In this document: positions 1,840 to 19,999 of the stretch, piece after piece | Layout: each line of letters opens with the position of its first letter | Position numbering within the stretch: the stretch's first letter is position 1 | DNA from: an uncultured virus (IMG/VR IMGVR_UViG_3300030202_003277) | Lineage: Duplodnaviria; Heunggongvirae; Uroviricota; Caudoviricetes | Strand: one strand, 5' to 3' | Length of the DNA: 20,000 nucleotides | Virus record (IMG/VR): IMGVR_UViG_3300030202_003277 | Notes under the pieces: generated by a model | Seen by the model: the letters and a program-made list of their open reading frames with translations, nothing else | What the model was told of the DNA's origin: nothing | Databases searched by the model: none | Position numbers and translations under genes: made by a program

Positions 1840-3501
1840 ATGGCAGATTGGGGTTTATATTCAGCATTAAGGGGTAAAAACAATTGGCAACAAAGACGTG
1901 CTGATAAGATGATGAATTTTCAAATGACTGAAGCTCTTAGGGCTAAAAGGGAAAGAGAAAATCAACAGAGAATGCAAATGGAAGCTAAATTTTTAGAATA
2001 CCAAAATGCTATTCAAAATTTAGATGTTTTAAAACAAGACCAAGAAAGAGTTAGGGGTGTAGAAGGTAAGGCTCGACAAAATGTTATAGCTGGTATTGCT
2101 AAGTATGATGGTGATATTAACAAATATATGAACAGTGGTGGTTTGCAACAAATGAATGCATATCAGCAAGAAGTAATGCAATCTGAAGAGTTAGCAAATG
2201 CTGTTCAAAATAAAAAAAATATGGCTTTATATCTTGCAGATAGAGCTAAAGGAGATAGATGGATGAAATCAGTTATGGTAGATAAAGAATTTATAGACCC
2301 ACAAACTGGAAAAAAAACTACAAGAAAAGTAGCTACAAATATGGAAGATCAAATGGCAATGTTTGATTCTGGTCAATTATCTAATTTTCAATTTAATGGT
2401 TCTGAAAAAAAGGTAGCGATAAATCCTGCATTATTTAAAAAATCTGTTAAAGACGCTACTAATCCATATAGTAAAGATAATTATGTAACACAATCTAATG
2501 TATTTGATGCTGCATTAATGCAAGGAGCAAGTAAAGAACAAGCTATGCAATTAGCAGAAGAATATGGACAAGGAGTACAAGCTGGCGGTGTTGAAAGTGC
2601 TTGGAGATGGGGAGCTGGTAATCCATTAGACATTGAAAAACTTAAAATGCAAGCAAGTCAGTTTAGAGAAAGTATGAATTATAAACGAGACTATTTAAAA
2701 CAACAAAAAGAACTTTCTCAATATAGGGCTAAATATGGTAATAAAGCAACTAATACTTTAGCTGCACATGCTGTTGCTGTTAATAGAAAATTATTAGCTG
2801 GTGGAGATGGTGCTACTTCTACTGATGGTTTGTTATTAAATGACATAGCAAAATTAACTCCAGAAAACTTTATTAAAATGCCACAAAATAAAGATAATCC
2901 AAATGGTATGCAATATATGTATTCTGGACCAATGCGTACAGCTACAACAAATTATATTGATGGTAGAGCACAAAGTCAATTAACTGGTGGAATAATAAAT
3001 TCAACAGGCAATCCAGTTCCAATAATGTTAGGAGATCCAAATAGTCGAAATTCATTTGTAAGATTAAGACAAGAAAATGGAGATATGGAAACATTTGCTA
3101 TAGCTTACGCACAAGGAAATGCTGATAATCCGATTTTTGGAGCAGCAGCTGCTAATGGTCAAGCTGGTAGTTGGGTGGTTGGAGATATTGATAATGCTAT
3201 TACTGGACAATCACAGAAAAAGTTTGTTGGTTTAATACCTGTAGGTGGTTTATTAGATAATCCAGCATATACTCAAGCATTAGATATGGAAGCTGGTTAT
3301 AAAGTACAAGGTCAAGGGCCTTATGAAAATTGGCAATCTTTGGGTACAGCTGGTTACAATGAAATTAATCAACAAAATATTAATGCTATGGGTGGTTTTG
3401 ATCAATATAATCAAATGGTTAATAATCAACTTGGAACATTTTATACCGGAAGTACATCGGCTGGACAAACAAATTATAGTTTAGAAAATTACGATCAATA
3501 A
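1840..3501 (+). CDS. Putative phage ejection/cargo protein (553 aa)
   Basis: Uninterrupted ORF with a Q/M/N-rich coiled-coil-like N-terminal half and a Gly/Asn-rich C-terminal half, and no Cys. AT-rich leader without a Shine-Dalgarno. The stop overlaps the next start (TAATG at 3499-3503). Confidence 0.6.
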   Translation: MADWGLYSALRGKNNWQQRRADKMMNFQMTEALRAKRERENQQRMQMEAKFLEYQNAIQNLDVLKQDQERVRGVEGKARQNVIAGIAKYDGDINKYMNSGGLQQMNAYQQEVMQSEELANAVQNKKNMALYLADRAKGDRWMKSVMVDKEFIDPQTGKKTTRKVATNMEDQMAMFDSGQLSNFQFNGSEKKVAINPALFKKSVKDATNPYSKDNYVTQSNVFDAALMQGASKEQAMQLAEEYGQGVQAGGVESAWRWGAGNPLDIEKLKMQASQFRESMNYKRDYLKQQKELSQYRAKYGNKATNTLAAHAVAVNRKLLAGGDGATSTDGLLLNDIAKLTPENFIKMPQNKDNPNGMQYMYSGPMRTATTNYIDGRAQSQLTGGIINSTGNPVPIMLGDPNSRNSFVRLRQENGDMETFAIAYAQGNADNPIFGAAAANGQAGSWVVGDIDNAITGQSQKKFVGLIPVGGLLDNPAYTQALDMEAGYKVQGQGPYENWQSLGTAGYNEINQQNINAMGGFDQYNQMVNNQLGTFYTGSTSAGQTNYSLENYDQ

Positions 3502-6500
3502 TGGGAGAATACGTAAAAAAACCGTTACAAACATCAGGTGGCAATCCAAATCAAGGGGCACAAGGATTTACTGAAGATTTTAGAGATAGAACTCCAGCTT
3601 TAATAGATGCTGATGGTAAAATAAATCTTGATAGAGAGTTTCTTTCTGGTAGGTCTGAAATGGAACAACAAATGACTTCAATGGGGTTTGATGTTGGAAG
3701 ATTAGATTTACAAGAATATGATTATGCTAATTTATATAGAGATTGGAACTCAGTTGATGCAAGAGAAGTGCCTGATTTTTACGATCCATTTGAAGCAGAA
3801 TCATATGAATTTGAAAGATGGGCTATAACTGACATGGCTGCTGGACTTTGGAATAGAGGTGTTGCTGGAATGGTTAGTGGTTTAGCACAAGCTCCAGCTA
3901 TTGTTGGTGCGGCTATTACTGGTGGAGAAGTAGATGGGTTTTGGGATAGTTGGATTCAAGGAGCAAATGACATGGGTGAAGCTATGAGTGTTCAGCAAAG
4001 TGATAGATCTTTAATTCCTATGACATCTGAAATTAATTCAAGCAATTTAGCATATGCTATTGGAGATGGATTAGGATTTGTAGCAGATATATTTTTAGGA
4101 AGTCATGGTGTTGGTTCATTAGTAAAAGCCGGTTCTGCTGTTAGTAAAGTACAAAGAGCACAAAGACTTGGAAGTTTTTTGACTGGTACTGTTCAAATGC
4201 AAAAAGATTTATATCAAGAAGGAATTAGAAATGGTTTAAATCCTGGAGATGCAGCAAGAGTTGCTATACCTACAGCTTCAATAGTTTCTTTATCTGAGGG
4301 AGCTGCTTTAGAAATGTTAGGTGCTACTATAAGTGGACAAACATTAAGGGGAATAGGTACATCTGCTTTAAAGGGAGAATTTCAAGCTATGGGTAAAGCT
4401 TTTGCTAAAGGTGGTTCTGGATTAACAATGTCAAATTTTAAAAAATTAGCTCCAAAATATGCTAAATCATTTGGTCAAAAAATGAAAAGTTTAGGAGCCA
4501 GTGCATATAAAGGTGCTACAGTTGAGGCAACACAAGAATTTACTCAACAATATATTGAAGATTTTGGAAAGTTTGCTTATGATACATGGTTTGCTGGAGA
4601 TGATAAAACAAAAGGTAAAGGGAAATTTGGTGTAGAGTGGGATAAAACTTTAGAAAAAGCAATGGTAGGTGCTTTAGTAGGTGGTCTTGTTGGTGGTATG
4701 GTAAGTGGTGGTGGTTCAGCAATTAGAGGGGTTGAAGGAAATACTACGTTTGCATATGTTAAAGATGCAATAGATAATAACAAACCTGGTAAAATTAAAA
4801 GAATTATAAATCAAGTTAATAGAATGGGTGCTAATGGAAAGGTAGAAAACGCTCCAGAAGTAATTCAAGCTATTAAAGATATGACAAGATTTTCTCAATC
4901 TATAAAAGGTCTTAATATAGATTCAAGTACTGCTAATTTTCAATTATTTCAATTAAATCAAATACAACAAGGGTTTCAAGAAAAATTTGGTAAAGAATTT
5001 AAAACTGATCCTAAAACAAATTATTTAATAGCTAATGCTTATAGAATTAATGAGCAAAAAGCAACTATGCTTACTCAAGCTATGAATAATGAAATGCAAG
5101 TTCTTATTCAGGATAAAAAGCCACTAACTAAAGACTTAAATAAATTTGAAACTAAATTAAATAATTATCAAAAGTTATTTAAACAAATTCAAAAAGGACA
5201 AATTAATGAAGAGCAATTAGTTAAAGAAATTAGAAAAAATGAATCCCCTACTGTTACTAAATGGAGACAATCCATTGAAGCAGAAATGGAAAAAATTAAA
5301 CAATCACAATTAGATAATGATGGTGTTTCTGTTAATGAACAATTAGATAATTTAGACGCTGAAAAATTAAAGAAAAAAGAATCTACATTAGAATATGTAG
5401 AATTACCTAATAATAAAAAAGCTACTAAAAAAGCAATTACAGATTTTGAAAAAATTATTGCAGAGAGAGATAAAATGAATACTGCAGCTGAAAAAGATAG
5501 TACTGTTCGTGATGCATTTGCAGATAAAATGAGAGATGAATATGGAATGACTTTAGCTGATTTAACAGAGCTTGAAACAAATTGGACTTTTGGCGAAAAT
5601 ATTAAAAGTAAACGTGAAGAGGGTTCATTAAAATATGTACAACCAAAAACAAAACAAACTGAAGAATCAAAGACTCCAAAACAAGAAAATAGAATTAAAG
5701 AATTAGAACAAGAAATTGAAGATCAAAAAAGAGTTGTTGCTATAACTGGACCAGCTAAAGCGGGAGATGTAACTTCTACTGATGCTAATTTAAAATTAAA
5801 ACAATTAGAAAAATCTTTAGAAATTGAAAAAGCAGCTGTTGCTGCTTCTGAAAGGAAAGAAGGTACTACACCAGTTTTTGAAAACGAAGAAATAGATGGT
5901 AAATTCTATAGAGATAATCAAAAAGAAATTGAAAGTAGAGCTAAAGAAATTAGAGAAAATAAAGAAGCTAATAAAATAGCAGATGCAATAAAAAAATCTT
6001 CTAAAGAAGAATTAGAAGATGCAGCTAAAAAAGCTGAAGAAATTAAAGAAGCTAAAAAGAAGCCTGAATCTAAGAAGAAACAAGATAAGAAAGTAGCTCC
6101 TAAAAAAGTAAAAGAAGATTCTAAAGCTGAAAGAATTGCTAAAAGAGATAAAAAACTTTTTGAAGAAACTCAAGAAGCTCCTGGAATACCAGGAAAACCT
6201 AAATTAGATAATATAATTAATGATGGAAATGTAACTACAGGTGTTTATGTAAATGAAAATGGTGATATAGATATAGTTATTAGTAGTACAGGTACAAACC
6301 AAAATTATGTAGGATTTTATAGAGTTTATGAAGATGGTAAACCAACAAATAAATTTACCTCTAAAATGCAAGTTGTTGATGGTAAAGGGTTTGGTAAAAT
6401 GATAGCAAATGCTCAAAAACAATTACCTGAAGGACATCAATGGTTAGAAACTAAAAGTGTTTCTAAAGATGGTTTAAGAGTTTGGAATAAAGCTAAACAA

Positions 6501-9500
6501 AAAGGATATAAAGAAGTTGTTGATGAAAATGGTAATATAGTAACTAATGAGGTAACGTTAAATCAAGCCACAAAAGAAGGTATAACTGGAGAGTCTACAG
6601 ACTACAAAGATGTTGTAGTTAGTAAAGCTGAGGCTGATAATATTGTTAATGAACTTCAAGAGATATACCCAGGAATTGAAACATCTACCATTAAAGGAGG
6701 TCCAGGTAAAGTTAAAATAAAAATAAAACTACCTGTATTAGAAAGCACTACTGAAAAAGTTGATTCTACAAAAACTAAAGATAAAGTACCTACAGAAACT
6801 AAAGAAGTTTCAACTGAAATTTCAAGTTCTGAAGAAATTAAACAAGAATCAGCTGCAATTTTAAATGAATATTCAAATTCTGAAATTGCTAAAATAATAA
6901 GAAGAGAAGATGATGAATATTCTCAAAATGAAGAGTCTTTAGGTAGATTTATCGAAAGAAATACTGAAAATGTTGAAGGTGGAAAAGCTATAGAAGATAT
7001 ATATGAGTATGGTATTATTCAAAGAATAATTGCAAATGATGGTTCTAAAATTCAAAGATTAGTTGATTTAAATGGAAAAGTTCATGGTATTCCTTTAATT
7101 AATCTTACAATGGATGCAAAAGAATCTGGATTGTTATTTGATGGAAAAAAAGATTTTAGTTTATCAGAAAAAGAAATTTCAGATTTCTTTAAATCTAAAT
7201 TTGGTACTAAAGAAGATGTAGATGAAATTACAGATGAAGATATAGATGAAGATGATATGCCATTTGGTTATACTCCTATGTCTGAAGAAGATAAAGCTAA
7301 ATTAGACAATCAAACAAAAGACAAAAAAGAACAAAGGACTGATTTAAAAAGAGATTTACAAAAAGAAAAACTTGAAGCAAATAAAATAAAAAACAATCCT
7401 GAGTTATATGCTAAAATATTAAATCATTTTCAAAAATTATTTCCAAATATACCAGTTCAACAACTTAATAATGCACTGTGGAAAAATGGGCCATTTACTG
7501 TAGCTTATATAAATGAATTAGGTGTTNNNNNNNNNNTACTGATGAAGCTTTTCAAAATACATTATTACATGAAGGAGCTCATATTATAAAAGAAATTTTA
7601 GGAGACAATCATCCTTTAATTAAAGCTGGTATGCAGTTTATTAAAGGCACAGATTACTTTAAAAATGCTCAAGTATTATATTCTGATAAAAGTGTAGCAG
7701 AACAAGCTGAAGAAGCTTTAATGGAAGCTATAGCTGATAATTCATTAGAAAAATTAAAAACTAAATTAGAAGGAACAAACTTACAAAAATTTGTTTCTTG
7801 GTTAAAAAGATTTTGGAATGCAGCTAAAAGAGCTATAGGTCTTAAAAAAGGTAAGCAATCAGTTGAAATGCTTGCTGATATGTTAGCTTATGAAAAAGCT
7901 CCTTATAATGCTGATTTAGGTTTGTTTAATGAATTTAAAGAACAGCGTTCAGCATTACATATGCAAACAGTACAAGAGGTTCAATCTACTATTTCTTTAG
8001 CAAGATTAAATTATAGATTAAATCCAGAAGATTATTTAAACCCTACTACTAAACAAAATTTAAAATATTTAGTTTATAATAAACTTGGACTTAAAGTTAT
8101 TCAAGATTCTATTATAGCAAACCCTAATTCTATAAATGAAACATTATCTTCTCAAACAGTAAATCAAATTAAAGAAGAAACAGATAAAGAACTTAGGGCT
8201 CAAAAATTGTATTATGCATTAAAAGTTGAAAATAATCAATTATGGAAATTGATTGAAACAACTACTAATCAATTATCTAAAAAATCATTACCAACAATAA
8301 CGGATCTTGAAGAATTAGTAAAGACTGAATTAAAAGGTAATAAAGATATTTCAGAATCGGTTAGGTCTATTGTAACAGCAATTGTTGATAATGATGGTTA
8401 TTTATATGATTCAAATGAAGTTTATCAAAATATTGCAAGAATAGCTGATAAATCTATCGATATAAAGTCATTTGAAAAAAATCTTCAAGAAGATGAAACT
8501 AAAGGAAATGATATAGCTAAAAAGATTAATTTAATTTTAAATGCTTTCCCTACTAATGCAAAAAATGGTATTCTTTCTGAATTAGCTTCATTAACTACAA
8601 TAGAATATAGGTCTTTAATTAAAACACATAATGTAGTTGATGGTCAGAAAGTTACACAAGTTTTATGGAAAAGAGTAAATAAAGATAGAACTGTAGATGA
8701 TTTATTTAATAGGTATGCTGTAAATTATAAAAATGCTAACCTAAATCAGCTAAGATTATTAAATAGTCAGTTAAAAGATATTAAAAAAGGATTTGCAATT
8801 AAAAGATTTGTTGTTGATCAAGATGTAAATAATGCATTTTTTCAAAATGCTAAAATGTTTGTTGAAGAATTAGTTGGAGATAGTTTTACTAATGAAGAAT
8901 TTAAACAGTTTTTAAATAAACAAATTAAAACAGCTCCTTCCGTAGAGAAAAAAGTTCAAAGGTTATCATATTTATTTGCAGCAAGTTCAAAAAGAGATGG
9001 AACATTTACACCTGGTTCTTTTAGTAAATTATTAAATGATATAAAAACACAAAACAAATTTGATAAAAAAGAATTTTCAGGTGTTTTAAGAAATTTAGCG
9101 ATTGCTAAAAAGGGTGATTCAATTTCATCAAATTTTGTTAATCAAGCTGGAAATAATGTAACTGCAACTAAATTAGGTTATTGGGTTAATCAATTTGGTA
9201 AAATGTTTGCTTATGATAATAAATTTAGAAATGAATTATTAAACTCTACATTATATAAAGCTAATCCAGTTTTAAAAGAGTGGGCTAAGTCAAAAGAAAT
9301 TCCAGAATGGTTTATACATGACGCATTTGAAAACACTGGTTTTAGTGGAGCTATAGAACACAATAATGCTACAATTAATGATATTGTTTTAAATAACTTT
9401 TTTTATTATTCTCAAAATAAATCTAATCAAAAATCATACGCACAATCAATAGGTGTTACTGGAGATAGAGGACATTTAACATATTTTAAAGTACCTAAGT

Positions 9501-12500
9501 ATAGTGAAGAACAATTAATTAACGAATATAAAATAAGAGCAAAATTAGATGAGGCTTTGTTAAATAGAAAAATAAGAGATAAAGGTGTTTCGCCAAAATC
9601 TTTAGTAAATCAATTTAATAAACTTTCTTTAAATCAAGCTGTTATATTTGATGGTAAAGTTGAAGTATTTATAGATGCAGTTGGAGATTATGAGATGTCA
9701 CTTCCTCGAGTTCGAAAAAGAGTAGAAAATCTATATAAATTATTAGAAAACTCAGGAACATTAGAAGCTCTTGCTCAACAAAATCCTTCTGTAATAGTTG
9801 ATGGTAAAATAAATAAGGATAAAGTAAATGAATTAATAACAAATTATATTTACACTGAATCATTAAATAGGTCTTATTTAACTGATATTTATGCTGGTCC
9901 AGCTATAGATAGAAAATCAGTTGCTGATGTAATGAAGCGTATGGCTGGTTTAAATTCAGGCGGTAAGCTTATTCAAATAGATAAACCAGTTCATGTGTTT
10001 GTTTTAGATACTTCAGGAGCAGATGGAAAAATTATGTCTGATTCATTTTCATTTAATGGTTCACATTTAGCAAACCATATTTCAGAACAAAGTGGAAGTA
10101 CTGATGTAGTTGGTGTAAATATGAAAGATATGCTTTATCAAATTAGTAACGATGGTGGTCTTGATTTTTATAAAATGTCAACTTTAAATGTTACTGGTGA
10201 AATAGATGATAATTCATTAACTCAATTTACTGATTCTAATAATCTAACTGAAGGTTATAATGCAATTGGAAATGCAATTTTAGAATTAGAAAAAGCTTTA
10301 GGTGATAATGCATATGTTAAAATAATTGATAAAGATGTTGTTAAAGGAGATTTGTCTCAATATGATAAAATTCCAATTAATGAATTTCTTGCAGATCCAG
10401 CAAAAGTAAAAAATAGAAATACTCTTAAAGAATTTAAAAATTACAGAGTAGCATTTAATCTTAACAAAGATTTATCAAAAGTTCCATTAGCTAATCAAAA
10501 TGTAATAATGTCTACACAATTAGCTAAAATTTTATTAAATCATGATGTATCAATTGAAGAAATTGAAAATTTTGAAAATGCATTAGTATCTGTATTAGAT
10601 GATTCATTAAAAGAAAATCAAACATTTAGTAAGTTAAATAACATTAATAGATTATTAAATGAATTAACTAAAGATTCAGAAGAAAATACAAAGTCAGAAA
10701 TTATTGAAATTCTTTCTGAAATGAAACGATTAAATAGTGGAACTTTTGAAACTACTTATAGAATTGGAAATTATAATTACTCTCAATCTCAAGTAGCTAA
10801 TTTAGGTTCTATAAATGAATCTGCTAAAAAATTTGCTGATAATTTAATAACTAAACAAGAGTGGCAAGATATATTAAATAAACATGAAATGTCTGAAGAG
10901 ATGTTTAATGAAGCCATGACTAATAATGTTATAAATAGATATAAAGGAAAAGATTTAGGCGAATTTGCAACAACAATTAAAAAAAGTAAAAAAGTTAGTG
11001 TATTATTAGATTCTTTTGATCATCCAAATTTAAAACCTATGGTTGAGCAATTTATATCAAGTAGGTTAACAAAACAGGGTATAAGAACTAATATGTCTGG
11101 TATGTATGCACATATGCTTCCAGATTTTACAGATAAACTTAAAGGTTATAAAGAAAATGGTTTAGAGCCAATGGAAATTGGTGTTCCATGGTCGTTATTT
11201 ATACAAAAAAGACCAGGGGAATCTGATGAAAGTGCCAAAGGAAGAGCTGAAGAATTATTAAAAGAAAAACCAGAATTATTTAGAAATGTTGTTGTTCGTG
11301 TTCCCGCTTCAGGAGCTGTATCAAGTTTTGCTGGACAAGTTAAGTTTTTTGTTGATGGACATTCAAATACAGCTATTGTTCCTAAATCATATATGGAGGC
11401 AGCAGATGCAGATAATGATGGAGATAAAGTGTTTGTTTATAGAGCTGATTTAAATAAAGAAAGTGAACTTTTAGAAAGTAATAAAACAAAAGCTTTTAAC
11501 CAGGTTTATGAAAAAGCAAATTCTAAAGCTCAAAAAGAAGCTGCAGTAAAAGGAGATTTATCTTTAGATAGAATAAAAGAACTATTAAAAGAATTTGATT
11601 TATACAATGAAGATGTTTTTCAATTAAACAGTAATGAGGATTTTGCTAAGTTAGCAAATAACATGTCTTTTGGAGCAGATGCAATTGGTATATGGGCTGT
11701 AGCTTCTAAAATGTTATCTATGCTTTCACAGTCACAAGAACAATTAAAAAAACCTATTTCTTTTGGTTTTGAAAATGGAAATTTAGTTGATATAAAAAGA
11801 CAAAAATTTACTAACAATGCATTAAGTGATGTAGCAGTATTTTTACAAGCAGCTCTTGATATGGGTAATGATCCAGTTCACATTTCAACAGGAGTTAATG
11901 AATATACTATAGGTGTCGCAACAGCATTATCTTTAATGGATGTTTCTTTTGAAGAAATTATTCCTTTTTTAAATTCAAAACCTATTGCTGATTTAGTAAA
12001 TGAAATTGATAATGCTAAAACAAATTATATAGATAAATCTTCTTTTAGTATTAATAAATTCTTGAAAGCAAAATTAAACGAATTTGACGCTAAAAAAGGA
12101 AGTAAGTCTAAAGCTGAAATAAAAGCAATTATAGAGAACGGTGGTCAAGTAATACAAAAAGATCAAGTTGTTCCTGGTATATTTAAAACTGGAGATACAT
12201 ATTATAAAGTAGAAGAAATAGAAGCAAATGTTGCTAAATATTCTTTTGCTACAGAATCTGATTTAGAATCTTCAGATAATTTAGCAATTATTAAAAAGTT
12301 TGCAGAAATTCAAGAATTAGCTTCAGAATTACAAAGACTAATACCAGTATTACAATTAGATAATAAACTTCCTAATAATGGTTTTGATACAAAAAAATCA
12401 TTAGAAGTAATGGCAGATTTAAGAAATGATGGTTTTTCTTTTACTACTGATAATTTAGCAAAAAGACCATTGATTAAACATTACTCTAAAATGCTTGTAA

Positions 12501-13660
12501 AATTAAATGGTTTTTATAATGCAAGATTTTATATAAATGATAATCAATTCTATGATCTTGGTATGCAATTAGCTACTCAAATTTTTGGAAAAAATTCAGC
12601 TATTTATAAACATAAAGAAACTTTTGAATCTATAAAAGATACTATGTATTTATGGAGAGCACAAAAAGAGTTTAACAATCAAATTGATTCAGCTCCTGTA
12701 TTTATACAAGATACTGTTAACAAATTTGAAACAATTATAAATTCATTAAACAATACTAATGAAAGTAATTTGTTTATTTCAAAACCTTATGGTGTTAGTG
12801 ATCAAGCTTTTAATCAAGTTATGAATCAATTGAAATCAGCAAAAGAAATGAGTGTTCAAACTCCAGAAGTTTTTACTAATGAATTGAATAGACTAATAAC
12901 TTCTGAAAATCAAATTGAACGTATAATTGGAGAAGCAGTTGTTAAAAATCAAGAATATGCTGCAATAGGAAATCAATTAAGTAATAATGCATTTATTAAA
13001 CATTTAACAATTCAAGAAACTAAAGATGGAACTAAACATATTGTGCCAGTTAAATTAATTAATGATATTTCTGTTTCTGGATTAAAAGTAATTCAAGATG
13101 CATATAATAATTTAGCTAATATTGAAGGTGGAGTAGGTTTAACTTTACAAAAAGAGATTAGAGCTTATGCAATGTTAAGATTTGGTATGGCTTCTAAAAT
13201 GGGAAGTATATCTAAAATGTTTCCAACAGGAATGTCTATTGCAGTATTAAAAAATTCTCGAGATTTTAAAAATAATGCTATTGACACTCAAAGTGCAACT
13301 AATTTCTTTGTTAACCCAAAAAATATTGAAATGTTAAAAGCAAATACAGCTATTATGATGAAAGAAAAATTACCATTAGCTGTACCTACAGATAGACAAA
13401 TTTCAAGTGATTCAGATTTAGCTTATGGCACATATTATGCACATTCTGAAGGAGTTACTGTAAATACAAAATCAGATTTTGTTAATATTAATAATGATGT
13501 ATATAGAAGAGTACCTGAAAGTAATATTTTTCAAAATTTAAAAGGTCTTGGTGGAATGAAAGAAAAAGGTTATACTGTATTAATTAAAGATAAAAACAGC
13601 TTTGATTTAAGCAATAGAGAAGTACAAGATAATGCTAATCAAATTAAAAAAGAATGTTAA
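3501..13660 (+). CDS. Giant virion-associated polyprotein (about 3385 aa): membrane/ejection domain + GNAT-like domain + zincin metallopeptidase + crAss-like DNA-dependent RNA polymerase; interrupted by an assembly gap
   Basis: The frame of 3501 is open up to the N run (7527-7536). Right after the gap, the frame of the 7631 ORF is open from 7538 and reads TDEAFQNTLLHEGAHIIKEILGDNHPLIKAG-MQFIKG, completing a zincin domain whose first half (KILNHFQKLFPNIPV...AYINELGV) lies before the gap. A true gap of 8 or 11 nt (3n+2) fuses the two. RNAP motifs lie downstream. Confidence 0.8.
3830..4730 (+). other. Gly/Ala-rich hydrophobic helical domain (putative membrane-inserting/ejection-channel region)
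   Basis: Segments GVAGMVSGLAQAPAIVGAAITGG, AYAIGDGLGFVADIFLGSHGVGSLV and AMVGALVGGLVGGMVSGGGSAI, plus GATVEATQEFTQQ (4512-4550). This resembles the ExxxExxQ pattern I recognise from large phage ejection/polyvalent proteins. Confidence 0.55.
6190..6745 (+). other. GNAT acetyltransferase-like domain embedded in the polyprotein
   Basis: Globular beta-rich segment between two K/E-rich linkers. It has GKGFG (6381-6395, similar to GNAT motif A Q/RxxGxG), followed by SVSKDGLRVWNKAKQKGY (6456-6509), resembling motif B of phage polyvalent-protein GNATs. Confidence 0.45.
7401..7890 (+). other. Zincin metallopeptidase domain 1 (HExxH), spanning the N gap
   Basis: HEGAH at 7568-7582, in the frame of the downstream RNAP ORF but upstream of its track-called ATG. 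Candidate third-ligand helix EQAEEALMEAIA and terminal LKRFW helix. Confidence 0.8.
7527..7536. other. Assembly/scaffold gap (10 N)
   Basis: Ten consecutive N. The round length suggests a placeholder. It causes the apparent frameshift between 3501..7589 and 7631..13660. Confidence 0.95.
9850..12000 (+). other. Catalytic core of a two-barrel (DPBB) virion RNA polymerase, crAss-like type
   Basis: Ordered motifs: DVMKRMAGLNSGG (KR at 9935-9940), FYKMS, STQLAKIL (10511-10534), VVVRVPAS (RVP at 11297-11305), DADNDGDK (11405-11428, the DxDxD metal-binding loop; cf. NADFDGD in beta' and DFDID in phi14:2 gp66), and AALDMGNDP (11849-11875). Boundaries are approximate. Confidence 0.85.
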
Positions 13661-16600
13661 ATGACGTGTCCAAATAAATCAAACCCAGATTGGATAGCAT
13701 TAGTTGATGCTGTAGGAGAAAAAGCAGCTATTGAGGCTTATGTTAGAAATAATTATGATATACCTAAATTAAATGGATATGTTAATCCAATTAATGAAGG
13801 ATTGACTGGTACAAAATTTAATCAAGTTTCTACTCAAACTAAATTAAATGAAGCTCCTAAAATAGCACAAGAAATTATTAATAAATTAAATACTCAAATG
13901 CCTGATGTACAGGTTAGTTTAGATGGTTTAATTAAAGATGGGAAATGGATAAAAATACCACCAGGTCAAGATGGTATGCATAATAGAAATGCTTTTGTTG
14001 GTGCTGTAGCTTGGGCTAATGATTCTATGTTAGAAACTCCACCTCATGAATATGCTCATGAATATATCGAGATGTTTAAAAATCATCCTTTAGTAAGGAA
14101 AGCAATTATGGCTTATGGCTCAGAAGGATTAGCTATTAAAATGGGTCAAGATTTTGTTAATCGAACATTGTCTAAAAATCAATTGCCTTTAATAGAAAGA
14201 ATATGGGATGTAATTAGAAACTTTTTTGGATCTAAAGATGTAGCAGATATTATTTCTGATAATTTTTATAAAGGAGAAATGATGTCAGGACAAATTTCTG
14301 AGGGTAATAATATTATAAGTTATAATACTAAAAAACAACCATTAAAAAGAATTAAAGGAGCTTTTGATAGTAAAGGAAAGTTTGATGAAAATTCAGTTGT
14401 TTTAAAAACTATTGATACAGATAGAGCTGTTGATTATATAATGCAAACAATGGCTGGTTATAATGTTTTTGGAAATTTAAAATCAGAATTTGATTTTGAT
14501 GTAGGACAAATTGTAGATAAAGTAGAGGGAGAAGTTAATCCTGATAGAGCTGCTCTTGTTTTTAAGTATATAATGCAAGCTGTTCAAGCAACAGATAGAG
14601 ATGTTAATGGTAAATATGCTAATAGAGCTGGTATATCAATTCAACAAATAAGAGAATTACAAAAACGATTATTTGATCAAGAGCATGTAAAAGAATTATT
14701 AGATATTTTACAAGGCAACAAACCTCAACCAGCAATAAATAACTTAACTAAAATTTCTAAAGATTATTGGCTTTTAGTAAGAGCAATGCAAAAATTAAAT
14801 TATTTAGAAAAAGTTAAAAATGGTGTAATTGCTGATAATAATAAAATAATAAGCAAAGTAACTTTAGCTGAAGAAATTACAAAAAACATAGAATCTTTAA
14901 ATCAAAAAAGAGCAGATTTATTAGATAAGAAATTTAAAAATCCATACATAAGAAAATTTGTAAAATGGTCTAATAAACAAATAACTGATTATTTTATAAC
15001 TCCGTATTTAACTGCTAAATATTTAGCTGGTGAAGATTCAGTGTTTATGGATATGTTTTATAGGGGGTTAGATAATGCTGATACTAATAAATTAAGAATA
15101 CTACAACAGTTTGATAAAGATTTAGCTTTAAAACAAGAAGTTAAAAACCGATTGGGTAAATATTCTGCATTTTCTGATTCTAATTTAGATATAAGTAGTT
15201 ATAAAGGTTTAGAATTAGACCTTATTGTTAATGATAATCAAACAAAAGTAAAGCTTACAGATGGTGAAATACTTTCTTTATATCTAACAGCACAACAAAA
15301 AGGAGATCAATCTATTTTTCCAGATTCTGATAGCCCACGATTAACATTAATAAAGCATGGTTTTCAATTAGATAAAATTGAAGGTAGACCCGGAATGGCC
15401 AAGACAAGATATAATTTTAGTGAAGGAACTTTACAAGCAATTGAAAAGCACGTTGAATCTAATCCAGATTTAATGCAAGTAGTAAAAAATGTAAATAAAT
15501 CTTTAGATAATTTATTTGTTCCATTGTCAGAAACTTTTAAACAACAAAATGGTTTTTATCTACCTAAATATGAAAATTACTTTCCTGTAACAACATATTT
15601 AGGAGCATATGACATGAAAGTACAAAGAAATAATATTGAAAGCTTTAAATCAATTAGAGATAGAGTAGGTTCAGGTAAACCTTTTTATATTTCTGATGTA
15701 AATAAAGTTTTAGCTTATCATTCACAAAATGCATCTTCATATTCTGCATATGCTATTCCTATAGAAAATAATAGGAAAATTATTAAAATGTTAAAAGATG
15801 AATATGATGGTGGTGGTAAAGAATATGAAACTATAAATAAACTTTTAGATCAAGCAGAAAGTAAATTAGTACAATTAAATGACCCTACATTTTTATCTAC
15901 TTCTGAAGGAGAAACAAGACTTGCTAATACTTTAAATAAAGGTATGAGTAATTTTGCTGTTGCAGTATTGTCTTGGAATATACCAGTTATGATGAAACAG
16001 CCTATTTCATATATGGCTGCAAGAGAAATGATAAATGCAAAATATTTAGCTAAAGCTGGTTGGGGAGCTGGTGGTATAGCGGGTATTTCTCCTAAACAAA
16101 TTTGGGATTCATTAAGTGTTCCTGGAGTTAAAGGTGGTAAAACTATATTGCCTGTTGAATGGCAAATGGATGAAAAAAACCCAGCTTATCAAGAAATTAT
16201 AAAATGGTCTCCAAAATTAACTGCAAGATTTGATGGTGCTGTTTCTAAAGAAATGGGTGAAGCTATGTTTGAAAAAAAGTTTGGTAAAGATGAAATTACA
16301 TTACCAGGTTTAAAAAATAAAAATGGTGATAATTATAAAGTTTCACGAGCAAGGTTAATGGAAGGTATTAAAATATTTGATGCTGCTACTGTAATGTCAA
16401 TATGGAGTGCTGTTCAAGAAGAAGCAAAAGAAATGCACCCAAGTTTAAAAGAAGGTAGCAATGAATTTATGGAACATGTAGCACAACGAACAGAAAATAT
16501 AGTTAATGCTACACAGCCTACTTTTGATTTAATGAATAGAACTAATTTAAGTTCTATGAAAAATCCTTTTGCAAGAACATTTTCTATGTTTGGTTCAGCA

Positions 16601-17137
16601 AGAAGTAAATTAGGAGCATTAATGATAGATGGTTTTTATGACGCTATGATGAATCCTACTAAAGAAAATAAAATTAAATTGTGGAAAAGAACATTTAATT
16701 TAGCTGTTTTAAATGGTTTAGCTATATCTATGGCAAATGCATTAGCAATGGGGTTTGATTTTGATGATGAAGATAAAGATGGAAGAGTTGTTGATGATAT
16801 AGGTAATTGGACAAAATATCAACTTGTAAATAATGCATTTGGTAACTTTTATTTTGGTGGTGAAGTTTCAAGATTTATTACTTCAAGAATAGATGATGCA
16901 CCATGGAGAAGTGAAATTGACAATCCTTTAGAACAAGTTTTAAATGATGGATTAGAAGCTACTACTAAAATTATTAGAATAGGAAAAACAGATAAAAGAA
17001 CAGGTGAGTGGAATTACACAATAGATAATGGATTGTGGCAAATGGTTGATGTTGGAACTAAAATGATGGGAATGCCTAATAAATTAGTTAAGTGGCCCGA
17101 AAAATCTTATGAATATTTTATTGGAGATGAAGAATAA
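13661..17137 (+). CDS. Large ejection/cargo protein with N-terminal zincin metallopeptidase (1158 aa)
   Basis: Starts MTCPNKSNPDWIALVDAVGE. TPPHEYAHEY, with HExxH at 14045-14059. The C-terminal half is helical with hydrophobic segments (NFAVAVLSWNIPVMMKQPISY; NATQPTFDLMNR...NPFARTFSMFGS; LAVLNGLAISMANALAMG), as seen in large phage internal/polyvalent proteins. The ATG immediately follows the RNAP stop. Confidence 0.75.
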   Translation: MTCPNKSNPDWIALVDAVGEKAAIEAYVRNNYDIPKLNGYVNPINEGLTGTKFNQVSTQTKLNEAPKIAQEIINKLNTQMPDVQVSLDGLIKDGKWIKIPPGQDGMHNRNAFVGAVAWANDSMLETPPHEYAHEYIEMFKNHPLVRKAIMAYGSEGLAIKMGQDFVNRTLSKNQLPLIERIWDVIRNFFGSKDVADIISDNFYKGEMMSGQISEGNNIISYNTKKQPLKRIKGAFDSKGKFDENSVVLKTIDTDRAVDYIMQTMAGYNVFGNLKSEFDFDVGQIVDKVEGEVNPDRAALVFKYIMQAVQATDRDVNGKYANRAGISIQQIRELQKRLFDQEHVKELLDILQGNKPQPAINNLTKISKDYWLLVRAMQKLNYLEKVKNGVIADNNKIISKVTLAEEITKNIESLNQKRADLLDKKFKNPYIRKFVKWSNKQITDYFITPYLTAKYLAGEDSVFMDMFYRGLDNADTNKLRILQQFDKDLALKQEVKNRLGKYSAFSDSNLDISSYKGLELDLIVNDNQTKVKLTDGEILSLYLTAQQKGDQSIFPDSDSPRLTLIKHGFQLDKIEGRPGMAKTRYNFSEGTLQAIEKHVESNPDLMQVVKNVNKSLDNLFVPLSETFKQQNGFYLPKYENYFPVTTYLGAYDMKVQRNNIESFKSIRDRVGSGKPFYISDVNKVLAYHSQNASSYSAYAIPIENNRKIIKMLKDEYDGGGKEYETINKLLDQAESKLVQLNDPTFLSTSEGETRLANTLNKGMSNFAVAVLSWNIPVMMKQPISYMAAREMINAKYLAKAGWGAGGIAGISPKQIWDSLSVPGVKGGKTILPVEWQMDEKNPAYQEIIKWSPKLTARFDGAVSKEMGEAMFEKKFGKDEITLPGLKNKNGDNYKVSRARLMEGIKIFDAATVMSIWSAVQEEAKEMHPSLKEGSNEFMEHVAQRTENIVNATQPTFDLMNRTNLSSMKNPFARTFSMFGSARSKLGALMIDGFYDAMMNPTKENKIKLWKRTFNLAVLNGLAISMANALAMGFDFDDEDKDGRVVDDIGNWTKYQLVNNAFGNFYFGGEVSRFITSRIDDAPWRSEIDNPLEQVLNDGLEATTKIIRIGKTDKRTGEWNYTIDNGLWQMVDVGTKMMGMPNKLVKWPEKSYEYFIGDEE

Positions 17138-17151
17138 AAAAATTAAATTTG
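17121..17151 (+). promoter_or_regulatory. Putative Bacteroidota primary-sigma promoter (-33 TTG / -7 TAnnTTTG)
   Basis: TTG at 17121-17123, a 20-nt spacer, then TAAATTTG at 17144-17151. The -7 element sits in the 21-bp intergenic gap separating the cargo module from the Cys-rich module. Chance matches are plausible in AT-rich DNA. Confidence 0.45.
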
Positions 17152-17158
17152 TTAAGTC

Positions 17159-18079
17159 ATGGCTTTAGAACTGGATTTTGATTTAAGTATTACAGATTGT
17201 TGTGATGAATTACAGTTTTGTGATACTACTTGTGTTGTTAATCCTGATGAACCAGCACTTTGTTGTGATGGTTACGGAGCTTTAAATAATCCAAACATTT
17301 CAGATATATATTCTACTTCATTTAATTGGGTTTTACCAAGTGGAGCAGTTTATAATAATGTTAACCCTGGTTGGTTACAAGGATTACAAGCGTGCTATTC
17401 GTTACAAATTACTGGTGGTGTAGGTGGAAATATAGGTGTTGCTATAAATAGCACATATATAGGAACAACATTTTTTAATACTGATTTATCAAATACTGCT
17501 ACACAATTAGTACAAAGTATTAATTCACTTTCAGCTGGAACTGGATGGTGGGCTTACAAAGATCAAAACGATACAACAGGTACTACTGTTGTTATTTGTA
17601 ATTTACAAAATGGAATTGGTTTTAATGCATTACCTGTATTAGTTAGTGCTGATGGTACTATGACAACATCTTGGTTAGTTGGTGATGAAACAAGTGGTGG
17701 TAGAAATGGAGATGCGTGTTTTACTGTTAATTTAGATGATGTAGTTCCAGATCCATGTACTGTAGAAAGTTTTCCATCTTGGTTAGATGGAGTATATACG
17801 TTAACATATATTGTATATGATGTTAATGGAATAGAAATAACAAGAAAAACTAAAAAATTCTTTATAGACTGTAATGCTAAAAAATGTTTAAAGACGTTGA
17901 TTAAAGCTTTGTTAGACGATTGCAAAGATTGTGATGAAGCAGATCCTCGTATAGTTATGTTAAGGTCAAAGTTAGATGCAGCCAGAAATCAATTTGATGA
18001 ATGTTTATATGAATGTGCTCAAGAAACAATTGAGTCCGTTAGTAAGCAATGTAGAAACTTTTGCCTTGATTGTGACTGA
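17159..18079 (+). CDS. Cys-rich virion structural protein (putative tail hub/fibre adaptor), 306 aa
   Basis: 19 Cys by my count. Beta-rich body with WLDGVYTLTYIV and a C-terminal helical Cys-rich bundle (IDCNAKKCLKTL...DCKDCD...KLDAARNQFDEC...CRNFCLDCD). The TGA stop overlaps the next ATG (TGATG). Confidence 0.55.
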   Translation: MALELDFDLSITDCCDELQFCDTTCVVNPDEPALCCDGYGALNNPNISDIYSTSFNWVLPSGAVYNNVNPGWLQGLQACYSLQITGGVGGNIGVAINSTYIGTTFFNTDLSNTATQLVQSINSLSAGTGWWAYKDQNDTTGTTVVICNLQNGIGFNALPVLVSADGTMTTSWLVGDETSGGRNGDACFTVNLDDVVPDPCTVESFPSWLDGVYTLTYIVYDVNGIEITRKTKKFFIDCNAKKCLKTLIKALLDDCKDCDEADPRIVMLRSKLDAARNQFDECLYECAQETIESVSKQCRNFCLDCD

Positions 18080-18843
18080 TGAGTTTAATAAATGACATAA
18101 ATAATAATCTGACTTTTTTAAATGCTTTTAAAGCGTCAATGCCATTTGTTATTACGGTTGATCAAATTTGGTGTGATAACGCCACAAAAACATCATTTAC
18201 TCCTGAATCTCGTTCTGGTTTTTATTGTGAACCTTGTTTTTGGTTAAAACCATCAGATAGTTGTGATACATTTTACATGATAGATAAATCTAACTATTGT
18301 GGAAATGAAGGTTTAAATTGTCCTTATAGTGTTTTAACAATTGGGCTTCAAGAGTTTTGGTTGTTGCCAAATGATATTAATCAATATAGTGTTGATTTTA
18401 AAGGTTGTTGTGATACAGAATGGACAAATGTATTAGGTTTAAATACTTTTTCACAAAATTCACAAACTGCAATTACAGCTTCAAGGGGAGATGGGTGTTA
18501 TAGAGTAAATGTAACAATAAGTGTAGATGTTTATGAAAATGTTGATATTGGAAGAGAGCCTGTATTAGTTTTTGTAGAAACAATACAAAAAACTTATTCA
18601 TATACTATAACTATTGATTGCTGTGCTACGTTAAAGAAGAATTTAATAGAAAAAGTTAAATGCAAATTAGGATTAATTTCTTGTCAAATTAATAGTAATG
18701 AAATAGTTGGTAAAAAAACTACACGTCTTTATAATGATATGCATAGGCTTTTAAATATATTATGGGTATTAGAAAACTTTCCATTAGATTGTAAATGTAT
18801 TCAGTCATTAAAATGTGGTTTTGATAAAATTAAAAATTGTTAG
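18079..18843 (+). CDS. Cys-rich virion structural protein, probable distant paralog of the preceding gene, 254 aa
   Basis: 17 Cys by my count. GDGCYRVNVTI parallels DGVYTLTYIV, and TIDCCATLKKNL parallels FIDCNAKKCLKTL. Helical Cys-terminated C-terminus. TAG stop. Confidence 0.55.
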   Translation: MSLINDINNNLTFLNAFKASMPFVITVDQIWCDNATKTSFTPESRSGFYCEPCFWLKPSDSCDTFYMIDKSNYCGNEGLNCPYSVLTIGLQEFWLLPNDINQYSVDFKGCCDTEWTNVLGLNTFSQNSQTAITASRGDGCYRVNVTISVDVYENVDIGREPVLVFVETIQKTYSYTITIDCCATLKKNLIEKVKCKLGLISCQINSNEIVGKKTTRLYNDMHRLLNILWVLENFPLDCKCIQSLKCGFDKIKNC

Positions 18844-18845
18844 AT

Positions 18846-19547
18846 ATGAGTAATTGTTGTGATAATGAAAATAAAATCTTTATAAGTGATATTATATATG
18901 ACTGTGAAGAATTTCAGTGTGCTGGATTGCCAGCGTTAACTATAAAGCCTTGTATGACAATGTGTGAGGTTTTTAACATCATATTAACACAGTTATGCAC
19001 ATTATCAGGTGCTGGAGATATAACTGCTTCAAATGTAGGTGGTGGTATAGGTGTTTTTTATCAAAAAGTGGCAAGTGATTTAGAGTTTAAAACTCTTATT
19101 GCTGGAGATGGAATACAATTAGATAATGTATCTAATCCAGAAGAAATTATAATTACATCTACAGCTGGTACAAGTGCTGCTTGTATAGAGGCTCAAATTG
19201 ATTATACACTTGTACCTGGACCATATAGTGCTTCTAATAATTTACCTTCATTAACGTTTAATGTAGTTGCTACAGGAACGTATAATATTTCTGTAACTTT
19301 AGGTGCAAGAATAGTACCTAATGATAATGTAACATATCAAGTTTATGTTAATGGGTTGCCAGTTGGTTTTCCTTACTTACATACTAAAGATAATACAGCT
19401 ACTGGTGGCGATTATCAAATTTGTCATTTTGAAACTTGTAAGCCTTTAGTTGCTGCTGATGTTGTAAATGTAGTTGGTATTGCAGCCGGAGTTGGTCAAG
19501 GAACTACTATTGGGTCGTGTAATTTGTTTATACAAAGAATTGATTAA
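18846..19547 (+). CDS. Putative short tail fibre/spike protein with C1q/TNF-like (BclA-C-like) C-terminal head, 233 aa
   Basis: ATG at 18846 (MSNCCD) is preferred over the overlapping TTG at 18837. Cys-rich N-terminal anchor; fibre-type shaft motif ASNVGGGIGVFYQKVASDLEFKTLIAGDGIQL (about 19025-19120); beta-sandwich C-terminus (FNVVATGTYNISVTL...VYVNG...LVAADVVNV...NLFIQRID). Confidence 0.6.
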   Translation: MSNCCDNENKIFISDIIYDCEEFQCAGLPALTIKPCMTMCEVFNIILTQLCTLSGAGDITASNVGGGIGVFYQKVASDLEFKTLIAGDGIQLDNVSNPEEIIITSTAGTSAACIEAQIDYTLVPGPYSASNNLPSLTFNVVATGTYNISVTLGARIVPNDNVTYQVYVNGLPVGFPYLHTKDNTATGGDYQICHFETCKPLVAADVVNVVGIAAGVGQGTTIGSCNLFIQRID

Positions 19548-19558
19548 AAAAGAATATT

Positions 19559-19999
19559 ATGGGAAATTGTTGTTGTAATAAAAAAACAAAACTTAAAAGT
19601 TGTAAATGTGGTTCTACTGATGGAACTTATAATATTGTAATACCAAGTAAAGATTTTAATTGGGAAGTATTTGATATTAATTTAGGAGCTACAGCTGATC
19701 CTTTAACGTTTATTGATAATGATTTTCAAGTATGGTATGATAGAATGACTTGTGATGATACTATAAGAGTTACATTGTCTACAAATGATACTTCGGTTGA
19801 TAAAATATTTTTTGGAGTACCTACAGTTTCTGAATTTACATTTAGAGATGTTCCGGCAGATAATAGTACATTTACATTAGGAGATTTATATATAAGATTT
19901 ACAGGTGTTCCAGCTCCCGGCACAGTAGTAACTTTTTATGTAGATCATGAAGGGTGTTCAAGAAAAAGAAAACAAACTGGAACAGCAATAGTACCTTAA
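19559..19999 (+). CDS. Small beta-rich protein with Cys/Lys-rich N-terminus, probably structural (146 aa)
   Basis: Starts MGNCCCNKKTKLKSCKCG. AT-rich leader with A at -3. Complete, with TAA at 19997-19999. Confidence 0.55.
   Translation: MGNCCCNKKTKLKSCKCGSTDGTYNIVIPSKDFNWEVFDINLGATADPLTFIDNDFQVWYDRMTCDDTIRVTLSTNDTSVDKIFFGVPTVSEFTFRDVPADNSTFTLGDLYIRFTGVPAPGTVVTFYVDHEGCSRKRKQTGTAIVP

Follow-up and report, generated by a model that had tools for sequence, protein, structure and literature searches.

The stretch of DNA under study, referred to here as the window, comprises 20,000 nucleotides (nt) of an uncultured virus of the Caudoviricetes (IMG/VR record IMGVR_UViG_3300030202_003277), and its positions 3501-13660 carry two large open reading frames (ORFs) that flank an assembly gap and that probably form one gene for a virion RNA polymerase. 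The gap, 10 N at 7527-7536, is the only N run in the window. The upstream frame is open from ATG 3501 through 7526 and encodes 1,342 amino acids (aa; the N half), and the downstream frame is open from 7538, where it begins with TDEAFQNTLLHEGAH right behind the gap, up to the stop codon TAA at 13658-13660 and encodes 2,040 aa (the C half). An HEGAH sequence, a zincin motif, is encoded at 7568-7582. Because it sits upstream of ATG 7631, the first ATG of the listed downstream ORF, lists of ORFs miss it. An earlier note on this DNA, made from the letters and such a list, had claimed that the downstream frame runs back to the gap and holds an HEGAH absent from the listed translations, and reading the frame 7538-13660 directly bears this out. 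Fusing the two frames requires a gap length of 3n+2 nt.

When viral contigs were scanned with the C half, five related ones (L001-L005) were retrieved, and a repeat scan with the family alignment gave the identical five. L001 (G001) is 99.9% identical to window positions 6082-19999, with 13 mismatches and one gap opening, mostly the N run itself, in 13,918 alignment columns; of the other contigs, two have 96-97% identity and two share 59% at the protein level. In all three close contigs that span the site (L001, L002 and L003), the gap is filled by the same 8 nt, ACAATCAA, which contain no stop codon. Together with the following T, the fill reads Thr-Ile-Asn, giving the junction ..GV-TIN-TDE... 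The length is exactly of the kind that the earlier note had predicted (3n+2, for example 8, with no stop). The 10-N run is thus a placeholder for a true fill of 8 nt, and 10 nt taken literally shift the frame; the annotation splits the gene only because this placeholder occupies the place of 8 nt.

Continuity of the reading frame extends to all five related contigs, as the earlier note had suggested checking. Specifically, the ORF is continuous over 3,370 aa in L003, 3,123 aa in L004 and 3,145 aa in L005, and two forms, also continuous, are cut by contig ends (L001, 2,525 aa, open at the 5' end; L002, 2,557 aa, open at the 3' end). Additionally, the 3,385-aa protein P0004, a cluster representative with 27 member sequences, consists of the window's N half, TIN and the window's C half, with 9 mismatches in 1,342 residues and 2 in 2,040 residues, respectively. 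Public-run contigs from four runs were aligned to the gap-closed sequence, and in 4 of 4 runs, from four studies, they cross the gap site without an indel relative to L001. The polymerase also lies within one long chain in all 30 long proteins of the family. A stop codon and a mis-scaffolded join are excluded for the relatives, and P0004 and the continuous ORFs bear out the proposal that the two large ORFs are one chain of about 3,400 aa.

The product is ordered as an N-terminal module, a linker, a zincin-like domain and a two-barrel RNA polymerase (Table 1). A profile of the polymerase core, built from window 9107-12637 and three relatives and run against 1.84 billion cluster representatives, retrieved 77 proteins at E <=0.001, 45 of these at E <=1e-30. 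Thirty of the 77 have at least 2,500 aa, and those 30 have about 1,450-3,000 residues between the N-terminus and the core. An AlphaFold2 model of the 1,177-residue core, built with a 29-sequence alignment, reached a predicted local distance difference test score (pLDDT) of 85.8 and a predicted template-modelling score (pTM) of 0.79. When this model was compared with the PDB by Foldseek, the virion polymerase of phage phi14:2 (gp66; 6vr4_A) ranked first, with E 1.1e-20 and a template-modelling (TM) score of 0.61 by query length, and was followed by QDE-1, RDR2, bacterial beta-prime and P23-45-family polymerases.

In line with the structural match, a 24-sequence full-length family profile, compared with gp66 by hhalign without realignment, gave a probability of 92.6% and E 4.5e-07 over 364 columns. 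The alignment pairs VVRVPASG...SDADxDGDK of the family with GYRIPNQG...GSDFDIDK of gp66, and LQAALDMGNDP with LNAFVDNAKDP in the trigger-loop region; the residue ranges of the gp66 elements were taken from section 7 of the preprint by Drobysheva et al. (bioRxiv 10.1101/2020.03.07.982082). A second co-linear match covers the first barrel including the conserved KR pair (E 0.016), and the helical domains 5' of the core match gp66 residues 104-520. The catalytic DxDxD loop aligns with gp66 1361-DFDID-1365, and its three Asp show no variation in either the 40-sequence or the 29-sequence alignment. The KR pair and the Lys that follows the Asp triad are likewise invariant in the 29 sequences, and this Lys is nearly invariant in the 40. 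Taken together, a single chain carries two double-psi beta-barrels (DPBBs) with a connector, a bridge helix and a trigger loop, and its fold is nearest to gp66 (6VR4), which supports the suggestion of a phi14:2 gp66-type DPBB RNA polymerase.

The gap itself lies within the domain that precedes the polymerase, here named Zn1. A second AlphaFold model, of 971 residues of L001 with the gap closed and extending from the insert described below through the start of the core, has a pLDDT of 61 overall and of 70-91 from residue 390 on. Model residues ~390-575 form one compact, confidently folded domain, in which the gap (residues 446-448) is located between two strands and is followed by the HExxH helix (residues 456-469). 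Because the gap falls inside one folded domain, the claim that two halves of a zincin domain flank it holds. By its HExxH motif, the domain is classed as zincin-like: in 24 sequences, the first His and the Glu are invariant and 21 retain the second His. Of the 30 family members with at least 2,500 aa, 27 have the motif, at a distance of 1,165-1,398 aa before the catalytic one. In the remaining three of the 24 sequences (P0022, P0038 and P0041), HExxE replaces HExxH (alignment A3, P0003 residue 1351, window 7580-7582). E1395, 44 residues past the second His, is invariant in the 24 sequences and may serve as the third metal ligand, which in gluzincins is a Glu. A Foldseek search with the second model returned no zincin match at E <=0.001.

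A second zincin domain, Zn2, is found in the next gene, which begins on the base after the stop codon of the polymerase gene and whose product matches phrog_28077 (E 2.9e-27). In hhalign, the Zn1 columns of 24 sequences matched the downstream family of nine sequences across 139 columns (probability 99.1%, E 8.4e-19). The alignment superimposes the two HExxH motifs, and Zn1 and Zn2 are therefore paralogues. Additionally, six of the 30 long proteins, with lengths of 4,226-4,826 aa, have a second HExxH 745-925 residues past the catalytic motif, and BLASTP aligns C-terminal stretches of about 100-1,080 residues in them with the window's downstream protein at E 4e-118 to 5e-12. These six relatives thus have the N-terminal module, Zn1, the polymerase, Zn2 and a C-terminal module as a single chain.

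Outside the polymerase, the best conserved stretch is the N-terminal module, residues 1 to ~590. When profile A3 was compared by hhalign with gp078 of the phi14:2 GenBank record, residues 128-404 aligned with residues 95-425 at a probability of 86% and E 5e-06 over 260 columns, and BLASTP of the module against the same protein gave E 0.005. In phi14:2, the gene for gp078 directly precedes that of the polymerase, and the record annotates the protein as a virion structural protein by tandem mass spectrometry. The homology therefore indicates that the window gene corresponds to the phi14:2 upstream protein plus the polymerase, with the zincin at the joint. The module contains three hydrophobic segments; in 24 sequences, G188 of segment 2 is invariant and G190 nearly so, and G394, G398 and G399 of segment 3 are invariant. 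That the segments are moderately hydrophobic and Gly-rich, together with the homology to the phi14:2 upstream protein, suggests that the module may have a membrane role; the earlier note had proposed a candidate membrane-channel domain. An ESM Atlas search with residues 1-500 gave as its first match (score 0.96) a viral cluster in which 12% of members carry PF18834 (LPD22, a polyvalent-protein domain), a lead only, and a Pfam search found no LPD domain.

Between the N-terminal module and Zn1 lies a charged linker, and within it an insert of positions 6192-6887 that is kept in relatives of at least 91% identity and absent at 59%, 45% and 38%. The earlier note had called this segment GNAT-like, and its DGKGFGK resembles motif A of GNAT. 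No GNAT profile was among the Pfam matches up to E 10 for window 6192-6887, phmmer against the PDB with the same segment gave chance-level matches only, and a homologue search found three proteins, which are fragments of similar proteins, none with a Pfam domain. The model of the insert has the order strand-strand-strand-helix-strand-helix at a low pLDDT of 25-48, and an ESM Atlas search gave a faint lead, at rank 13 (score 0.87), to a cluster of which 13% of members carry PF00583. The GNAT-like domain thus gained no support from the Pfam, PDB and homologue searches, and the insert stands outside the conserved architecture. In one relative of the insert (P0101, 263 aa), the C-terminal continuation past the insert differs from that of the window, so the linker seems to hold variable small domains. 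A NADAR-like continuation that had been guessed for P0101 has no Pfam support.

Table 1. Features of the polymerase gene and the gene that follows it, in window coordinates.
Feature	Position	Strand	Basis or remark
Giant gene, ~3,385 codons	3501..13660	+	8 nt replacing 10 N; continuous ORFs in relatives; P0004
Conserved N-terminal module, residues 1 to ~590	3501..5270	+	Homologous to N-terminal region of phi14:2 gp078
Hydrophobic Gly/Ala-rich segment 1, candidate membrane-inserting helix	3861..3917	+	Residues 121-139; Kyte-Doolittle 19-residue mean 1.63
Hydrophobic Gly-rich segment 2	4047..4124	+	Residues 183-208; Kyte-Doolittle mean 1.31-1.35; conserved GDGLGF
Hydrophobic glycine-zipper-like segment 3	4659..4715	+	Residues 387-405; Kyte-Doolittle mean 1.5
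Charged, poorly conserved linker	5271..6191	+	15-24 Lys+Arg and 13-24 Asp+Glu per 100 residues; few invariant columns
Lineage-specific insert ('GNAT-like' segment of the earlier note)	6192..6887	+	Absent from P0008, P0009 and P0010; model pLDDT 25-65
Zincin-like domain Zn1, across the gap	7359..7918	+	HEGAH 7568-7582; conserved Glu (E1395) 7712-7714
Assembly gap	7527..7536	.	10-N placeholder; 8 nt in near-identical contigs
Helical N-terminal domains of polymerase module	7940..9106	+	Equivalent to phi14:2 gp66 residues 104-520
Two-barrel RNA polymerase core	9107..12637	+	KR of first barrel 9935-9940; catalytic DNDGD 11411-11425
C-terminal region of polymerase module and TAA stop	12638..13660	+	Translation; family conservation
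Next gene, 1,158 aa, with N-terminal zincin Zn2	13661..17137	+	Zn2 ~13835-14269; HEYAH 14045-14059

Gene content and occurrence point to a marine phage distantly related to crAss-like phages. In a relative of 96% identity (G005), genes for a major head protein, TerL and a portal lie upstream of the polymerase block. Its head-and-packaging proteins match phrog_11589 (E 7e-54), phrog_6681 (E 3e-84) and phrog_6547 (E 1e-62), and against phi14:2 its head protein and TerL give E 3.1e-6 and E 4.7e-14, respectively. In tblastn with the head protein, the best matches are Flavobacterium FpV4-like phages at 28% identity, and crAssphage, an Azobacteroides phage and a Bohxovirus are also among the matches; the FpV4 record is not classified in Crassvirales. 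Going by these head-protein matches, marine Flavobacteriia would be the likely hosts. A head protein, TerL, a portal and a polymerase block after the structural genes are what is expected of a crAss-like genome, here at a distant relationship. The sequence L001:900-2100 or close variants of it occur in 20 public runs from nine studies, and the holder runs, where organism-labelled, are all marine, seawater, aquatic or sediment metagenomes. No RNA run is listed among the sequencing runs that carry the sequence. Variants at 90-99% identity coexist inside single runs. The CheckV completeness of the five records implies a genome of ~70 kb, and the G+C content of the window is 28.9%.

The giant gene is tightly packed between its neighbours. 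Before it, stop and start overlap by one base in TAATG (window 3499-3503), and after it, TAA is followed directly by ATG (13658-13663); these junctions on both sides suggest one operon with coupled translation. The two ORFs 5' of the giant gene, 15-1817 and 1840-3501, have no family match. The former corresponds to the last 600 aa of a protein that has 1,282 aa in L003, and the latter encodes 553 aa; by position only, the two resemble the cargo or structural proteins (593 aa and others) before the phi14:2 polymerase block. Further downstream, a 120-aa ORF on the minus strand (17563-17925) runs antisense within a 306-aa gene (17159-18079) and is probably spurious. G001 additionally encodes a DnaB-like helicase, Sak4, an SSB-like protein, NinB/Orf and a Mom-like DNA-modification protein (L012:9092-9718, 13085-14509, 15025-16823).

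From this evidence, we put at about 85% the probability that 3501-13660 is a single gene, that it belongs to a marine phage with a distant relationship to crAss-like phages, and that it encodes a gp66-type virion RNA polymerase. Several results weigh against this reading. The fused protein has no direct sequence match in the PDB, Pfam or PHROG. Specifically, nothing rose above threshold when both halves were searched against PHROGs and Pfam, neither phmmer with the C half nor a full-length profile of six sequences retrieved anything relevant from the PDB (best match Beclin-1, E 0.016), and tblastn, run with the C half, with the first 700 aa of the N half and with the downstream protein, found no match in 50,697 phage records. 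The assignment therefore depends on profile-profile and predicted-structure comparison. Such failures of direct searches are expected, because polymerases of this sort are described as extremely divergent in a passage of PMC7886860. The catalytic loop also departs from that of crAss-like polymerases, all of which, according to section 7 of the Drobysheva preprint, have Ile or Val at position 4 (DFDID or DFDVD), which forces a non-catalytic conformation in the crystal. Among 48 family members, this position is Gly in 38, Ala in 9, Tyr in 1 and Ile or Val in none, and the window has Gly (DNDGD).

Equally, the comparison of the downstream family with gp076, the zincin protein of phi14:2, gave hhalign E 0.25, with no homology detected beyond the motif region, and that of Zn1 with gp076 gave E 0.037 at a probability of 1.4%. 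Because the matches to gp076 are insignificant, orthology of the downstream genes is not claimed; the window's downstream protein and its phi14:2 counterpart also fall into different PHROG families. Lastly, packaging, ejection, membrane insertion and cleavage are steps that we infer, and N4 offers a caution: its virion RNA polymerase (vRNAP) is, as stated in PMC5512222, packaged unprocessed despite an HExxH domain, which argues against assuming self-cleavage.

By analogy with phi14:2 and crAss001, the protein would be carried in the capsid and ejected before the DNA or together with it. The N-terminal module might then help the protein to cross the envelope or to anchor there, and early genes would be transcribed by the polymerase. 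Whether the chain is cut is finely balanced. There is nearly an even chance that the zincins, one of which opens the polymerase module and the other the C-terminal module, divide the chain into pieces that correspond to the separate proteins of phi14:2. A more specific scenario, which we consider unlikely in its entirety, is that the family is a separate marine gp66-type lineage with a two- or three-module polyprotein that its paralogous zincins mature by cleaving in cis, and that the released polymerase, with its canonical DxDGD loop, needs none of the active-site refolding proposed for the DFDID enzymes of crAss-like phages.

A substantial possibility, if below an even chance, is that the zincins leave the virion-polymerase chain, of about 380 kDa, uncut. 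It would then be packaged and ejected whole, the N-terminal module would tether it at the envelope or DNA channel and thereby couple early transcription to DNA entry, and the HExxH domains would serve packaging, autoinhibition or attack on the host. The unprocessed N4 vRNAP speaks for this, as do an account in PMC13434306, which places an HExxH subdomain in the C-terminal domain of that enzyme and reports the region as needed for encapsidation, and the proposal in the P23-45 paper (PMC10770324) that vRNAP fusions couple DNA translocation with transcription; HExxE in 3 of 24 members is a hint that some of them lack the complete catalytic geometry. What favours cleavage instead is that zincins start the polymerase and C-terminal modules in both two- and three-module fusions, that the N-terminal and polymerase modules are separate proteins in phi14:2, and that the motif His and Glu and the downstream Glu are invariant in 24 sequences of 21-62% identity.

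Two further alternatives concern the polymerase and the gene itself. The enzyme could be a two-barrel homologue that is not packaged in the virion, either a polymerase of middle or late genes or an RNA-dependent enzyme like QDE-1 and RDR2; both of these follow 6vr4_A in the Foldseek ranking, and we regard this alternative as very improbable. That there are two separate genes (3501-7589 and 7631-13660), with a stop, a frameshift or a mis-join hidden in the gap, is scarcely credible, since it has in its favour only the window's own 10-N run, which puts the halves in different frames, and has against it the stop-free 8-nt fill in 3 of 3 near-identical contigs, the indel-free bridging in 4 of 4 runs, one long chain in 5 of 5 contigs and 30 of 30 long proteins, and one folded domain that spans the gap.

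Taking the locus as one gene for a gp66-type virion RNA polymerase, its value is mainly one of annotation repair: a placeholder had split and mis-framed the phage's largest gene, and closing the gap restores a 3,385-aa product. Additionally, a well-sampled marine branch, with 77 representatives of which 30 have at least 2,500 aa, is added to the gp66-type virion polymerases, for which there is one structure so far. At position 4 of the catalytic loop, Gly or Ala in this branch against Ile or Val in crAss-like polymerases is a natural contrast that bears on the self-inhibited active site of 6VR4, and the two- and three-module fusions with zincins at module starts bear on whether the cargo is cleaved before or after ejection.

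Among known systems, phi14:2 is the closest. Its gp66 (PDB 6VR4; KC821624 gp077) is likewise a single-chain two-barrel polymerase and shares the overall fold over ~1,350 residues, at ~14% identity in structural alignment, and in both genomes a large HExxH-bearing protein follows the polymerase. Direct BLASTP against phi14:2 gp076, gp077 and gp078 gave only weak co-linear matches (E 0.005-0.6). The two systems differ in that the upstream protein and the polymerase are separate in phi14:2 and one chain in the window, that the window's zincin domain occupies the place of the first ~100 residues of gp66, and that the catalytic loop is DFDID in gp66 and DNDGD in the window. According to the Drobysheva preprint (10.1101/2020.03.07.982082), the gp66 orthologues and their two neighbours are virion proteins. 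For crAss001, a passage in PMC10172136 describes three polymerase-associated cargo proteins that are thought to traverse the tail partly unfolded.

More distant systems share parts of the layout. gp96 of P23-45, a Thermus siphovirus, has a two-barrel virion polymerase at the N-terminus of its tape-measure protein, which is the reverse order, and is structurally far more distant than 6VR4. The N4 vRNAP is T7-like and not two-barrel, and is reported to be unprocessed; because it is T7-like, its likeness to the window protein is one of architecture and not of descent. Iyer et al. (2017; PMC5512222) discuss metallopeptidase domains as processing devices of virion-delivered polyvalent proteins, and the predicted window architecture, with several unrelated domains and such a metallopeptidase in one chain, would fit that class.

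Literature searches for the exact layout found only general statements on fusions and zincins. Passages of PMC10770324 note vRNAP fusions in crAss-like and N4-like phages and describe a chain with polymerase, metallopeptidase and membrane domains, and the Drobysheva preprint states that in some crAss-like phages the polymerase is fused with its neighbours into a polyprotein, with a zincin in that block. The general architecture is therefore already known. The nearest published counterpart is the 'huge polyprotein' of crAss-like phages (Yutin et al. 2018, as reported in the Drobysheva preprint), in which the polymerase and its neighbours likewise form one ORF with a zincin-like protease and proposed cleavage; it differs in that the window joins two of the three modules, and six long relatives join all three. 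Fusion of the polymerase with its neighbours is thus already in print for crAss-like phages, and the gene at 3501-13660 adds a further case.

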